Positions 2,364 to 57,032 are shown, counted from the first letter of the stretch. The stretch is 57,032 bases of DNA from Persicimonas sp. (GCA_046545675.1 JBKGZI010000001.1:1-57032), one strand, 5' to 3'. Notes: a model not told the origin generated them from the letters alone. Translations and numbers: made by a program.

Positions 2364-2501
2364 GATGGGTCTTGATTCGTAGTTTTTTGGTTCTTGGCGG
2401 TGCGTGCTGGGACGCATCTTGGCTGCCAGGGCTCCAAAAAACAAGAACCGGGATCTTTTGCAAGGAGGGCAGGGCGTTGGAGCGTCAGAGTTCGGGAGGT
2501 T

Positions 2502-3182
2502 CTAGAAACGGACCTTGAGACGCGCGGCCGGCGCGCCGTTCATCCAGGCGGGGATGAGTTTGGCTTGAATTCCGGGGCCATCGTGCTCCTGTTTGGCCAT
2601 AAGGACCACGCCGCCGGTGACCATCGAGCCGCCCACGGCGTAGAGCGTGACGACGATCTTGCGGGCCAGGTCGACTTGCTTGCTGACGTCGCGATACTGC
2701 TCTGGGTCGACGGTGGCCGACATGTCTTCAGACTGGTCGTAGAGCTGTCGGCTCTCCATGTGGTACAGCAGCGCGCCGGTGAAGATGGATGCGCCGGTGC
2801 CGGTCAGGCCCCAGGCCAGGTCGGCGGTGTCGTTGCGCCGGCCGTTATCGTAGTTCAGGACCACGGGCGGAACCATCCCCGGCCTGTCGTCCGACGAGCT
2901 TGGCCAGCGTGGTGGGTGCTGGGCGCTCCTATCGTCGGTCATGGTCGAGTGGCGGCCGGAGGCTGAAATGACCCGCTGGTTGTTGAAGCGGAGGTTCGAC
3001 GGGGAGGTCAGGTCGAAGTTGTCGGCACGCGTGGCGCTCTGGTGGCTGTCGCGAAGGCGCAGCGTATCTGCGGGTTGTTCGGCGGTGGCGTTCGACGCAG
3101 AGATCGACAAGACCAGCATCACGCTCAGTCCGGTCAGGACCGAGAGTCGTTCGGCGATACGTGTGAAAGATGCACCAGGCAA
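2502..3182 (-). CDS. Hypothetical exported protein
   Basis: TTG start preceded by GAGGAG. Signal-like N-terminus (RIAERLSVLTGLSVMLVLSISASNATA), one C-proximal hydrophobic segment, and the protein ends ...RLKVRF. No family recognised. Confidence 0.5.
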   Translation of the reverse strand: MPGASFTRIAERLSVLTGLSVMLVLSISASNATAEQPADTLRLRDSHQSATRADNFDLTSPSNLRFNNQRVISASGRHSTMTDDRSAQHPPRWPSSSDDRPGMVPPVVLNYDNGRRNDTADLAWGLTGTGASIFTGALLYHMESRQLYDQSEDMSATVDPEQYRDVSKQVDLARKIVVTLYAVGGSMVTGGVVLMAKQEHDGPGIQAKLIPAWMNGAPAARLKVRF

Positions 3183-3527
3183 CGCGAACTCCTCACGAAA
3201 GCAAGCCAGAGCATGTGCTCGCCGGGAGCATGATGCTCGTTGGAGTGGTCGATTTGTTGCTTAAAATAGCTAAGGCCCATTTTAGCAGACCGCAGCGCCG
3301 TTGTCTCGGGTATAAAAGTCACCGGCGAGACGCTGCGTTGAATCATGATGCCGACAGGCCTGGCTGTGATCTCAAAGTTAAACTTGCAGGAAATGCCGAC
3401 AAGCCGCAGACACTGCTTGTCTGTCGGCGCCCAGTTTTGCTACGACTGCATGGGCGCGCTGGTAGCCGGACGGTAGTCGGGCGCGGTGCGCAGTTTTTTC
3501 GACGATCCCCGTGGCAGGTCCGATGCG

Positions 3528-54795: not shown

Positions 54796-55386
54796 TTACC
54801 AGTTCATCGGCTCGGCCGGGCGGCGTGTGGCTAACTCAGCAATGAACTCGTCAGAAGCTCCCTTGAGGGTGAAAGTGCCCTGGGAATGACCCACTGCGCG
54901 AAGGGACGGGTTAGCGAAGTAGAACGTCGCGATCAGCGCGACCACGAAGGTGACGCCGCTGAGCGTGAAGATCGGCATGCTATCGAGATACCCGCTAAGG
55001 ATCGTCCCCAACATTGCGACTACCGTGACCCCTGCGGCGATCCAGACGCGTTTGCTGCGTTCGGCCACGCAGTTTCGGCATAGCGAATAAGTCGCCTCCA
55101 ACTTCTTTCTGAGCACTAAGTGCAAGATGATCAAAATGAACAGATTGAGGAAGATGGTCAGTAAAATCCACTTGGGCGCGTAGTAGATCTTCTTTTCGTA
55201 CTTCTCGGCGCCCTCGTCATGCGAGCCACATGTCAGGCAAAGAGTCGATGGGAGGATGACTGGAGACGTCGCGTGGAGTTTGCCGGCTACGACTTCAAAA
55301 TTCAGGCCCTTCGAGTCAGCCGCAACGTCGGTGACCGGTGCGCTGGGCGGGGCGTAAAAATTATCGTCCGGCACGATGAACCTCAC
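54796..55386 (-). CDS. Hypothetical membrane protein with CxxC...CxxC pair
   Basis: GTG start. CLTCG ... CRNCV flank the first of three hydrophobic helices. Visibly lower GC than neighbouring genes. No family recognised. Confidence 0.5.
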   Translation of the reverse strand: MRFIVPDDNFYAPPSAPVTDVAADSKGLNFEVVAGKLHATSPVILPSTLCLTCGSHDEGAEKYEKKIYYAPKWILLTIFLNLFILIILHLVLRKKLEATYSLCRNCVAERSKRVWIAAGVTVVAMLGTILSGYLDSMPIFTLSGVTFVVALIATFYFANPSLRAVGHSQGTFTLKGASDEFIAELATRRPAEPMNW

Positions 55387-55601
55387 GGCATTGGGAGAAC
55401 GTGCCGGCGGACAGGAAAGGCCAGTCGGTCAGCCGAAAAGAGTCCCCGCAATGGTGCACGTCGAGAAGTCGTTTATTGATTTTTACTGGGCGGGCGCGGT
55501 TCTCGTCAACTGGAGCGCAATCGAAACGTCTTGGTACTTCTCTTCGGAGCCAGCCCATTAGGGCGGAACTCGTTGCACAGCGGTAGGGCCGCGGTAAAAC
55601 A

Positions 55602-55698
55602 CAAGACCCCTGCCGGTTTATCCGGCAGGTGAACCAGCTTGAGCGGGCTACCCGCAGCCGGCCCACCCCCCAACCCCCTGCCGGTTTATCCGGCAACC
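55602..55698 (-). repeat. Hairpin-repeat pair A1/A2 (68-bp period); the minus strand reads GGTTCACCTGCCGGATAAACCGGCAGGGGTCTTG
   Basis: A1 is 55602-55635, with a perfect 7-bp stem CTGCCGG/CCGGCAG and a 5-nt loop. A2 is 55671-55698 and shares CCCCTGCCGGTTTATCCGGCA exactly. The CTGCCGG starts are at 55610 and 55678. Confidence 0.8.
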
Positions 55699-56065
55699 TC
55701 GTCAAAAAAGTCAGAATTCTCCCCAACTGACCCACCATGGGATCCGAAATCCCGCCCCCAAAAACCAACCAAGACATACCTCAGCAGGGCCTCCGCTACC
55801 CCCTCTCGTGTGCCTTCTGGAGGGGTTGGCCAGGCCGGGGTAGTCGTCTGATACGGTGCGCAGTCCGTGAGGCTCACTTGTTTTAATTGCACGCGACGCT
55901 GGGTGAGACGTCACGTGTGGAACTCGCGTCGCGTGTTTGTGCGAGGCGAGCCTTCCCTGGAGCCCTCATTATAGTTATCGGGGATTTCGGCAAATCGTTG
56001 CGAAATATTTTGAAAATCGCACCGTGAGGAGGTGCGAGAGGGGGCTCGCGCTGTAGCTCATTCAA

Positions 56066-56213
56066 GCGTATTCACCGGCGGGATAAACCGCGCCGGGGCC
56101 TTGAGGGACGGATCTGACCACTAGCTTAGCCAGGCGTATTCACCGGTGGGATAAACCGCGCCAGGGTCTTCCGGGCAGCCAGGCGGAGATGGTCCGGCAC
56201 CGGTTATCCGCGC
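56066..56213 (+). repeat. Hairpin-repeat pair B1/B2 (68-bp period) plus a truncated third copy; homologous to A1/A2 in inverse orientation
   Basis: B1 is 56066-56103, GCGTATTCACCGGCGGGATAAACCGCGCCGGGGCCTTG. B2 is 56134-56171, GCGTATTCACCGGTGGGATAAACCGCGCCAGGGTCTTC (34/38 identical). The truncated copy CACCGGTTATCCGCGC is at 56198-56213. Confidence 0.8.
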
Positions 56214-56385
56214 TCAACCGACTGGTTTCGATTGCTCACCGTCACCTGGAGTTGACCGAGGCGGTTGTGTGGCCAGTGATTGATGTCTAGTTTCTGGCAG
56301 GCAGTAGGTTTGTCCGATACGCTCGAAATACACAATCGGTGGGCGACGCAACGCTGCCCACGTCTTAGATAAGAGGTCCCCGAAT

Positions 56386-56760
56386 ATGAAACTCTCGATC
56401 CTTTTGACTCTCGTCGGCGGTCTGTTGCTCCTGGGCCTGGTCGGCTGCGAGAAGTCGCGCGCCGATTACCGCGATGACATCGCCGGGTCGGTTTGCGACC
56501 AGATGCGCGACTGCGAGGCGTTCGGCCCCGACGGCGAATTCGCCGACTACGACGATTGCCTGACCGAAGTGAAGAGCACCTACAACGATATGTGGCCGGC
56601 CGACGAGTGCGGCGGTGGGCGTATCGACGCGCAGGCCTTTGAACAGTGCAAGAGCCGGGCGGTGGCCAACGCCTGTGACGAGAATATCCTCGACGCGCTC
56701 AGCTTTCGGCTCGAGTGCGGCGCCGACGATGTCTGCACCGCCGAGCCCAAAGAGAAGTAG
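56386..56760 (+). CDS. Small Cys-rich lipoprotein
   Basis: ATG at 56386 with AAGAGG upstream. Signal plus lipobox (LTLVGGLLLLGLVGC|E). 8 further Cys. Followed by a strong terminator. Confidence 0.6.
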   Translation: MKLSILLTLVGGLLLLGLVGCEKSRADYRDDIAGSVCDQMRDCEAFGPDGEFADYDDCLTEVKSTYNDMWPADECGGGRIDAQAFEQCKSRAVANACDENILDALSFRLECGADDVCTAEPKEK

Positions 56761-56794
56761 AACCATCGACGAGAGCCACACAAGAACGAAAAAA

Positions 56795-56829
56795 GCCGCG
56801 CCGAAATGAATCGGCGCGGCTTTTTTTTT
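56795..56829. terminator. Bidirectional Rho-independent terminator
   Basis: AAAAA-GCCGCGCCGA-AATGAA-TCGGCGCGGC-TTTTTTTTT: a 10-bp GC stem flanked by an A-tract and a T-tract. It sits between the plus-strand lipoprotein gene and the 3' end of the minus-strand tRNA. Confidence 0.85.
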
Positions 56830-56833
56830 GCAG

Positions 56834-56907
56834 TAGCGGGGGCAGGATTCGAACCTGCGGCCTTCGGGTTATGAGCCCGACGAGCTACCTGGCTGCTCCA
56901 CCCCGCA
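56834..56907 (-). tRNA. tRNA-Met (CAU), initiator type
   Basis: The reverse complement folds as a cloverleaf: TGCGGGG-TG-GAGC-AGCCAGGTA-GCTC-G-TCGGG-CTCATAA-CCCGA-AGGCC-GCAGG-TTCGAAT-CCTGC-CCCCGCT-A. Initiator hallmarks are three G:C pairs closing the anticodon stem, A11:U24, and an unpaired 1:72 (U/U). CCA is not encoded. Confidence 0.9.
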
Positions 56908-56979: not shown

Positions 56980-57032
56980 TAGCGGGGGCAGGATTCGAAC
57001 CTGCGGCCTTCGGGTTATGAGCCCGACGAGCT
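56980..57032 (-). tRNA. Second, identical initiator-type tRNA-Met copy (5' part cut by the window end)
   Basis: The 53 nt from 56980 are identical to 56834-56886. The two copies are separated by a 72-bp spacer. Confidence 0.85.

Follow-up and report, generated by a model that had tools for sequence, protein, structure and literature searches.

What is a gene-free stretch of Persicimonas sp. DNA in which a short hairpin repeat recurs at an exact interval of 68 nt? The stretch analyzed here (GCA_046545675.1 JBKGZI010000001.1:1-57032), called the window below, is 57,032 nucleotides long, and the repeats lie close to its right end. A first reading of the window, made from the sequence alone and referred to here as the sequence-only reading, noted a geometry resembling clustered regularly interspaced short palindromic repeats (CRISPR) and named a repetitive extragenic palindromic (REP) element and an undescribed structured RNA as alternatives. 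Our analysis indicates that the locus is very probably one copy of a ~620-nt non-autonomous composite repeat element that belongs to a REP-like, transposase-associated family. This answer is carried by the homology of the repeat units, their dispersal among genomes, the covariation of their hairpin and their association with a transposase gene. The locus is selfish or domesticated repeat DNA of the REP type, an ordinary kind of element, and both the unit family and its enzyme variant seem to be undescribed.

Four related hairpin units were found at 55595-56177, two per strand, facing outward and offset by 68 nt on the same strand. The four motif copies and their 68-bp spacing in both pairs had already been described in the sequence-only reading, and this description was confirmed: the word GGATAAACCG occurs exactly four times in the window, within 55614-56158, twice on each strand and 68 nt apart in both pairs. 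Unit A1 (55595-55653, minus strand) is a full unit of the type designated type 1, composed of a GTAGC tag, a CAAGCT box, a TTCACC foot, a hairpin with the loop ATAAA, and the tail GGGGTCTTG. Its hairpin of 10 bp at 55605-55629 has a single A.G mismatch close to the foot, and its core, TTCACCTGCCGGATAAACCGGCAGGGGTCTT, is identical to units in metagenome-assembled genomes (MAGs) of the Planctomycetes-Verrucomicrobia-Chlamydiae (PVC) group, Planctomycetota and Bradymonadales. Unit A2 (55671-55698, minus strand) is a type-1 unit truncated at its 5' end, where the TTCACC foot and the tag are absent, with an intact hairpin, TGCCGG-ATAAA-CCGGCA, at 55679-55695; the second unit homologous to A2 is complete in two related loci, L079 and L005 (related loci are cited by such numbers throughout). 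On the plus strand, unit B1 (56051-56109) represents a second hairpin type, in which the stem CCGGCGGG/CCGCGCCGG carries a conserved 1-nt bulge and is combined with the loop ATAAA and a TAGC tag; this bulged type also flanks a RayT-like gene in L097. Unit B2 (56119-56177, plus strand) is a degraded copy of B1 located 68 nt downstream, with two mismatches in the stem.

A covariance model recovered A1 (62.2 bits, E 1.2e-16), B1 (48.4 bits, E 1.6e-12) and B2 (31.2 bits, E 2.3e-7), and A2 as a partial match (19.4 bits, E 8e-4), scores that are partly circular, as the 64 training sequences comprised A1, B1 and B2 in addition to units of other genomes. Nothing significant beyond these four units was detected by the model over the whole window. 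A hairpin at 15595-15611, AGCCGC-ATAAA-GCGGCT, has the loop of the units and lacks the flanking boxes; it was scored at E 0.039 and is probably a chance occurrence. Single-sequence folding was uninformative, except that A1 was more stable than its shuffled versions.

The similarity between units extends ~20 nt 5' of the repeat as first described, in the form TAGC-N5-6-[CA]A[AG]GC, and the same extension (TAGC, 5-6 nt, CAAGC) precedes A1 on the minus strand. B1 and B2 are 83% identical over 54 nt of the 68-nt period (56054-56107 and 56122-56175). Because the 5' extension belongs to the unit, each 68-nt period is mostly repeat, ~55-60 nt, and the variable linker amounts to just 10-15 nt. The periodicity of the sequence-only reading therefore stands, but its division of the period into about 36 nt of repeat and about 32 nt of unique sequence does not. 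Nor did the truncated further copy that it placed at 56198-56213 hold up: this segment gives no covariance model match and is part of a right-end extension of the composite (56178-56215, plus strand) that aligns with the L005 copy only.

The organization of the units bears directly on the idea that they are two orphan or decaying CRISPR arrays, similar to type I-E or I-F and with a central leader in common. A regular 68-nt period, two pairs pointing outward from an AT-richer center, and the words GTrTTC and GGATAAACCG, which are in common with type I-E repeats as these are generally known, all recall such arrays. In type I-E repeats, ATAAA is part of a single-stranded 5' handle, whereas here it is a hairpin loop, and the likeness noted in the sequence-only reading thus holds for short words and for a regular period but not for structure. 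There are only two units per strand, 54 of each 68 nt are repeat, and unique spacers are lacking, since the inter-unit segments are themselves repeated elsewhere, as three identical 68-mers in L097 and as recurring linkers in L019, L036, L059 and L066. No recurrent cas-like neighbor was seen across ~100 loci. In the window, the 24 kb left of the locus hold no cas gene, and a Pfam scan of 20 open reading frames (ORFs) over 32.7-55.8 kb yielded no Cas family, with only 0.8 kb visible to the right of the locus; the products of these ORFs are pilus, two-component, ABC transporter, glycosyltransferase and radical SAM proteins. The window-wide PADLOC and Pfam summaries include no Cas among the listed families, and blastn with 55560-56260 gave no match in phage and plasmid collections. 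In addition, many genomes contain the units scattered singly or in inverted pairs, the pattern that the sequence-only reading had itself named as marking a REP-type element rather than a CRISPR. A CRISPR origin is almost certainly wrong, and the REP-type alternative raised beside it is the one borne out by the scan of other genomes.

That scan used the exact pattern TTCACC-N4-GGATAAACCG-N4-5-GGG, with the stem bases left free, on one genome per species for 185,579 species. It returned 109 stretches, ~17 of them chance matches within genes of unrelated bacteria and ~90 of them family members, many of the latter at the end of a contig. The host MAGs are assigned to two PVC-group bacteria, Ca. 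Erginobacter, Ca. Euphemobacter, two Lentisphaerales, two Thermoguttaceae, other Planctomycetota, several Verrucomicrobiota and one Bradymonadales (CAYLTX01), and single matches were present in one Thermodesulfobacteriota MAG and one Armatimonadetes MAG. In all family members the free stem positions are complementary, and the flanks are conserved as well. The consensus reads [G/C/T]TAGC-N5-6-GAACT-N2-3-TTCACC-stem-ATAAA-stem'-GGGGTCTTG, and in the general skeleton of the family the box is GAACT-like, the variable stem has 6 bp, and the 5-nt loop is ATAAA or, in other lineages, RCRAG. The hairpin stems measure 9-10 bp and contain G.T pairs in some units. Among 64 distinct units aligned in an ungapped register, six of nine stem pairs show compensatory double changes, and stem cells are paired in 92.5% of cases versus 80% in shuffled alignments, none of 500 shuffles reaching the observed value.

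Some units stand alone, others form inverted pairs that combine two different stem types, and others again are strung head to tail. A generic hairpin finder detected 284 units, in which neighbors on one strand are spaced 61-74 nt apart, so that the window, with its exact 68 nt, shows the normal length of unit plus linker in this family. In 170 of 275 units a TAGC tag precedes the hairpin foot by 16-19 nt, and in a Lentisphaerales variant it is replaced by CAGCC. By crude gene calls, ~85% of the units are intergenic, and their orientation relative to the adjacent genes is mixed (~140 units).

Copy numbers in individual relatives are considerable, one Lentisphaerales MAG having at least 30 loci, several PVC and Planctomycetota MAGs 6-9 unit-bearing tiles each, and the Bradymonadales MAG 5. 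The Lentisphaerales MAG CAYLNH01 harbors ~30 copies of a ~370-nt element, each with one unit and an internal palindrome of ~60 nt (L008, L012, L015, L020, L024, L026, L028, L029, L035, L040, L041, L043, L047, L061, L071, L074, L075, L082, L085-L087, L089, L090, L094, L100 and L102). Most contigs carrying this element stop just 5' of the unit, as multi-copy repeat DNA fragments assemblies. The type-1 core TTCACCTGCCGGATAAACCGGCAGGGGTCT (55605-55635 in the window) is identical at L013, L025, L032, L044 and other loci, in MAGs labeled as PVC group, Planctomycetota, Bradymonadales, Thermodesulfobacteriota and Armatimonadetes. For a core to be identical across phyla, either the system must have spread horizontally or it must be under very strong constraint.

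Few genes recur beside the units: across ~100 loci, the only recurrent neighboring proteins were the translated repeat itself and a syntenic phosphomannomutase. In two different PVC/Auribacterota-like MAGs a unit lies directly upstream of the phosphomannomutase gene and divergent from it (L039:3599-3690 and L072:4186-4211), which may reflect an insertion site retained across species. On a Thermoguttaceae chromosome, an IS630-family transposase with a helix-turn-helix and a DDE_3 domain in two overlapping frames is located between divergent units (L010:5307-6493), and it may have inserted into a unit cluster.

The window contains more than the units themselves. The entire segment 55602-56171, including the non-coding center between the two pairs, is matched at 70-80% identity by three Bradymonadales MAG loci (L079, L005 and L046) and by a contig-end fragment, L042. 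Each copy has the same architecture, with type-1 units on one side, then the center, then bulged type-2-like units on the other side, and the gene neighbors differ among the L079, L005, L046, L042 and window copies. For instance, the L079 module sits between trpA and an unrelated lipoprotein gene, and no neighbor of the window locus has a homologue there; no orthology was found between the window locus and any of the MAG copies. Because the whole ~620-nt module recurs at unrelated sites, we interpret the window module as a non-autonomous composite element. As judged by these alignments it is a multi-copy element, comparable to a REPIN (an inverted pair of REPs), a bacterial interspersed mosaic element (BIME) or a miniature inverted-repeat transposable element (MITE), whose predicted ends are the tails of the units. 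Composites of type-2 units, a center of 130-250 nt and type-1 units were also noted in the PVC MAG JAZDIV01 (L001, L018, L050, L060 and L078) and at L070. These are 85-94% identical within one genome and ~85% identical between genomes, in parallel with the Bradymonadales module.

The center itself (55699-56050, assigned to neither strand) is 70-80% identical to the centers of L079, L005 and L046. It contains several GC-rich hairpins and a TATAAT that is invariant on the minus strand (ATTATA on the plus strand, 55970-55975). The AT-rich segment at 55969-56018, which the sequence-only reading had likened to a CRISPR leader, does exist, but as a piece of the conserved center of a multi-copy module rather than as a locus-specific leader. 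The absence of any credible gene in the gap, also proposed at that stage, was borne out, as 55387-56385 has only mechanical ORFs, none of them conserved in the paralogous copies, and no frame within the center is open across all four copies. The center was also considered as a decayed transposase gene, and this was rejected: a single short WxGWP-like match was seen in one copy, and it is out of frame elsewhere. The most conserved 21-mer of the center had only two matches in the JGI (Joint Genome Institute) metagenome collection, both of them chance matches in coding DNA.

With a conserved non-coding center between two outward-facing pairs, the units could instead be primarily functional RNA, either small-RNA genes or 5'-leader hairpins, and the center a bidirectional promoter or a non-coding RNA (ncRNA) gene. 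The hairpin does covary, both pairs point to outward-transcribed flanking genes and lie ~215 nt upstream of each start, the minus-strand TATAAT of the center is invariant, and A1 scores as terminator-like, with G.T pairs in some stems of the family. However, a sigma-70 promoter scan of the region found none, and Rfam searches of 55350-56400 at E up to 10 returned only two chance-level matches; at the gathering threshold, the two tRNA-Met genes were the only Rfam hits in the window. Five compensatory pairs were counted in the center on either strand, with an unfavorable covariation term, although only four sequences enter this comparison. The mixed orientation of the units relative to neighboring genes, their position around a transposase gene at seven loci and the contigs breaking at units also argue against a primary role as RNA, which we regard as very unlikely. 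For REPs of E. coli, secondary exaptation at the RNA level is known, and the same could hold for these units.

The link to a transposase was first met in L097 of the Bradymonadales MAG, where an ORF of 278 aa (2399-3235, minus strand) matches the Pfam family Y1_Tnp (E 2e-18) and also the NCBIfam IS200/IS605 transposase model. Its stop codon falls inside the ATAAA loop of a unit; three units on the same strand follow the gene, and three perfect 68-nt tandem units on the opposite strand lie upstream of it. A protein search retrieved 798 homologues of 262-316 aa, many of them named "REP element-mobilizing transposase RayT" by JGI, a COG-level label, and many located on ~1-kb contigs that hold little beyond the gene itself. 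Four homologues from other lineages (L110, L112, L115 and L116) have no ATAAA loop nearby and are flanked by inverted arrays of the family skeleton with loops ACGAG, GCGAG or GCAAG and a period of 63-82 nt; no TnpB partner or second transposition gene was called beside these four genes. A tblastn search against the loci from the pattern scan added two further genes, in Ca. Erginobacter (L019) and in a PVC MAG (L033). In both cases the gene is followed, in sense orientation, by the type-1 unit exactly as it occurs in the window, and is preceded on the opposite strand by a second hairpin type, with the stem GGCGGG and the loop ACAAG, ACGAG or GCGAG.

Inverted unit arrays thus flank seven of the seven genes examined (L097, L110, L112, L115, L116, L019 and L033), and the link to RAYT (REP-associated tyrosine transposase, or tnpA-REP) genes that the sequence-only reading had proposed to check was found, for a RAYT-type gene. 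Most unit loci are gene-less, the gene being present at 3 of ~90 family loci and at none of the ~30 unit loci of one Lentisphaerales MAG. Since the arrays are inverted around every gene examined and most loci lack one, the arrangement is that of a REP-RAYT system, or REPtron.

The enzyme has features of its own. The family carries the IS200-type motifs DHLH and Y-x3-Q (YIxxQ), and for this reason a regular expression for the motifs of class-2 RAYTs had no matches. Among family models, the IS200/IS605 equivalog and the generic Y1_Tnp match best, and by their motifs the proteins fall outside the class-2 RAYT clade. An AlphaFold2 model (mean predicted local distance difference test score, pLDDT, 91) comprises two ferredoxin-like units and matches the TnpA proteins of ISDra2, IS608 and IS200, each best PDB match covering one half. 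Template modeling (TM) scores normalized to the target were 0.7-0.79 for IS608 and ISDra2 TnpA versus 0.49 for the E. coli RAYT (4er8). In L097 and the homologues P0001-P0120, an invariant Y120-x3-Q124 occurs in the N-terminal half, which has no HUH (histidine-hydrophobic-histidine) motif, and an invariant H211-x-H213 occurs in the C-terminal half, which has no canonical tyrosine helix. A profile comparison of the two halves gave a weak match (E 0.09) that is in register. These features suggest that the Y1 fold is duplicated within the enzyme, which looks like a single-chain pseudo-dimer with one composite active site and split catalytic residues.

The affinity of the enzyme raises the question of whether the window could hold a non-autonomous derivative of a true IS200/IS605 insertion sequence, a palindrome-associated transposable element (PATE) or MITE. 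Under this view the Y1 gene would encode an ordinary selfish transposase, the element would be bounded on the left by one hairpin type and on the right by the other, and the module in the window would be an internal-deletion copy. Consistent with this are the NCBIfam IS200/IS605 family call and the Y-x3-Q motif, the best structural matches to IS608 and ISDra2 TnpA, the two distinct hairpin types flanking the gene, and a module that is fixed and asymmetric in unrelated contexts. However, IS200/IS605 elements have defined cleavage sites, one same-strand hairpin per end and often a tnpB gene beside tnpA, whereas the ends here are inverted multi-unit arrays, and gene-less units far outnumber genes in the fetched loci. 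The center has no credible similarity to a transposase gene. The paralogous modules are 20-30% diverged and are therefore not recent copies of the kind left by an insertion sequence. A PATE or MITE derivation appears unlikely on balance, and a REP-like composite accounts for the locus better in these respects. The resemblance to IS200/IS605 elements such as IS608 and ISDra2 and to PATEs nevertheless extends to the fold and motifs of the transposase, the subterminal hairpins, which are recognized as single-stranded DNA in those elements, and, by analogy, a putative distal 5' cleavage site.

The closest known systems are the REPtrons, in which REP or BIME elements are associated with RAYT (TnpA-REP) genes in E. 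coli, Pseudomonas and Stenotrophomonas (PMC3733652, PMC3479197), and inverted unit arrays around a Y1 transposase gene are the defining REP-RAYT arrangement (PMC3733652, PMC6006769). The units studied here share with REPs a short GC-rich covarying hairpin and an extragenic, multi-copy distribution as singlets, inverted pairs and clusters, in addition to the inverted arrays around a Y1/HUH gene and the predominance of gene-less copies. A possible counterpart of the unpaired REP tag containing (G)TAG is the conserved [G/C/T]TAGC carried by 170 of 275 units, at a different distance from the foot. In classical REP families head-to-tail dimers are rare (PMC3733652), whereas tight head-to-tail arrays of 61-74 nt are common here, and there are two hairpin types per system. 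The enzyme also differs, being ~270 aa long with an apparent internal duplication of the Y1 fold and an IS200-type Y-x3-Q in place of the class-2 RAYT motifs. REPs with a GTAG tag are already on record for the PVC superphylum (PMC3733652). Another close parallel is offered by the class 3 TnpA-Y1 proteins of Quentin et al. 2018, which are found mainly in Planctomycetes and were described as intermediates between insertion sequences and REPtrons that have several atypical flanking hairpins and can be high-copy; they are ~178 aa long, with NHVH and YV[VI]xEQ motifs of the Y-x4-Q type and a CnGA foot (PMC6006769). By that published description the present family appears to be distinct, its members having 262-316 aa, DHLH and YIxxQ, and a motif order permuted over two domains. 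The unit sequence was not found in the texts or supplements of PMC3733652 and PMC6006769, and a full-text search for the core returned nothing relevant. As for composite copies, the modules recur within one genome as REPINs do, but the window composite has ~620 nt, a ~350-nt center and doubled, non-identical end units. REPINs, following Bertels and Rainey in 2011, are reportedly inverted REP pairs with a conserved spacer that replicate as a non-autonomous unit and consist of short, near-symmetric hairpins.

Several observations fit a REP-like composite less well and should be counted against it. Dispersal and copy counts come from relatives, the genome of the window itself being outside the scanned collection, and tblastn revealed no transposase homologue in the window. 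The enzyme carries Y-x3-Q and not YxxNP, and class-2 RAYTs are less similar to it in sequence and fold than is the TnpA of IS200/IS605. Between tag and foot there are 16-19 nt, versus 0-2 nt in REPtrons. The conservation of the ~350-nt center has no explanation if the element is of this kind. Finally, the type-1 unit is near-identical across phyla, which is unusual, as REPs are generally lineage-specific.

A mechanism can be proposed for a composite in which two type-1 units on the minus strand, a non-coding center and two type-2-like units on the plus strand are combined, all units being oriented outward. By homology with IS608 and ISDra2 TnpA and with E. coli TnpA-REP, the transposase would recognize the hairpin in single-stranded DNA and cleave at a site set relative to it; a candidate site is the conserved TAGC, which precedes the foot by 16-19 nt. 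In IS608 the left-end cleavage site is ~19 nt 5' of its hairpin, and the TAGC position is comparable. Cleavage of this kind would allow gene-less units and composites to be mobilized and amplified in trans. The head-to-tail arrays may have arisen by insertion beside an existing unit, by tandem duplication or by slippage. A host role, for instance as mRNA 5'-leader hairpins for the divergent genes 54796-55386 and 56386-56760, is conceivable and purely speculative. A more far-reaching proposal can only be put forward tentatively, namely an undescribed REPtron-like system that spans phyla and combines two hairpin types in 61-74 nt arrays, a fused pseudo-dimer Y1/HUH enzyme and a trans-mobilized ~620-nt composite carrying a functional promoter or ncRNA cargo.

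With respect to the immediate surroundings, the gene to the left (54796-55386, minus strand) encodes a predicted membrane protein of 196 aa with a CxxC motif and no Pfam match. The GC content dips to 0.49-0.50 at 55000-55300, versus ~0.60-0.62 in the flanking regions, and the gene may have been recently acquired. To the right are a gene for a DUF6184 cysteine-rich lipoprotein (56386-56760), a strong GC hairpin with a T-run after it (56790-56830), and two tandem tRNA-Met (CAT) genes on the minus strand (56833-56907 and 56980-57032), the second of which is cut by the end of the window. The suggestion that the repeat might be tied to these tRNA genes found no support, as tRNA genes were seen at only 6 of 40 related loci, always more than 200 nt away from any unit.

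The locus is neither a new defense system nor a new class of RNA, and its meaning lies elsewhere. For genome annotation, a ~36-nt hairpin repeat with a period of 61-74 nt imitates a CRISPR, and false mini-arrays are to be expected from CRISPR detectors across Planctomycetota, other PVC-group phyla and Bradymonadales, in assemblies that also break at the units. Work on REP/RAYT-type systems has mostly centered on Proteobacteria, and their known range would be extended to the PVC-group phyla and Bradymonadales. The enzyme would stand between the IS200/IS605 transposases and the RAYTs, as an apparent fused two-domain form of a normally dimeric enzyme, and may for that reason be of relevance to the study of HUH endonucleases, single-stranded DNA transposition and the domestication of transposases.

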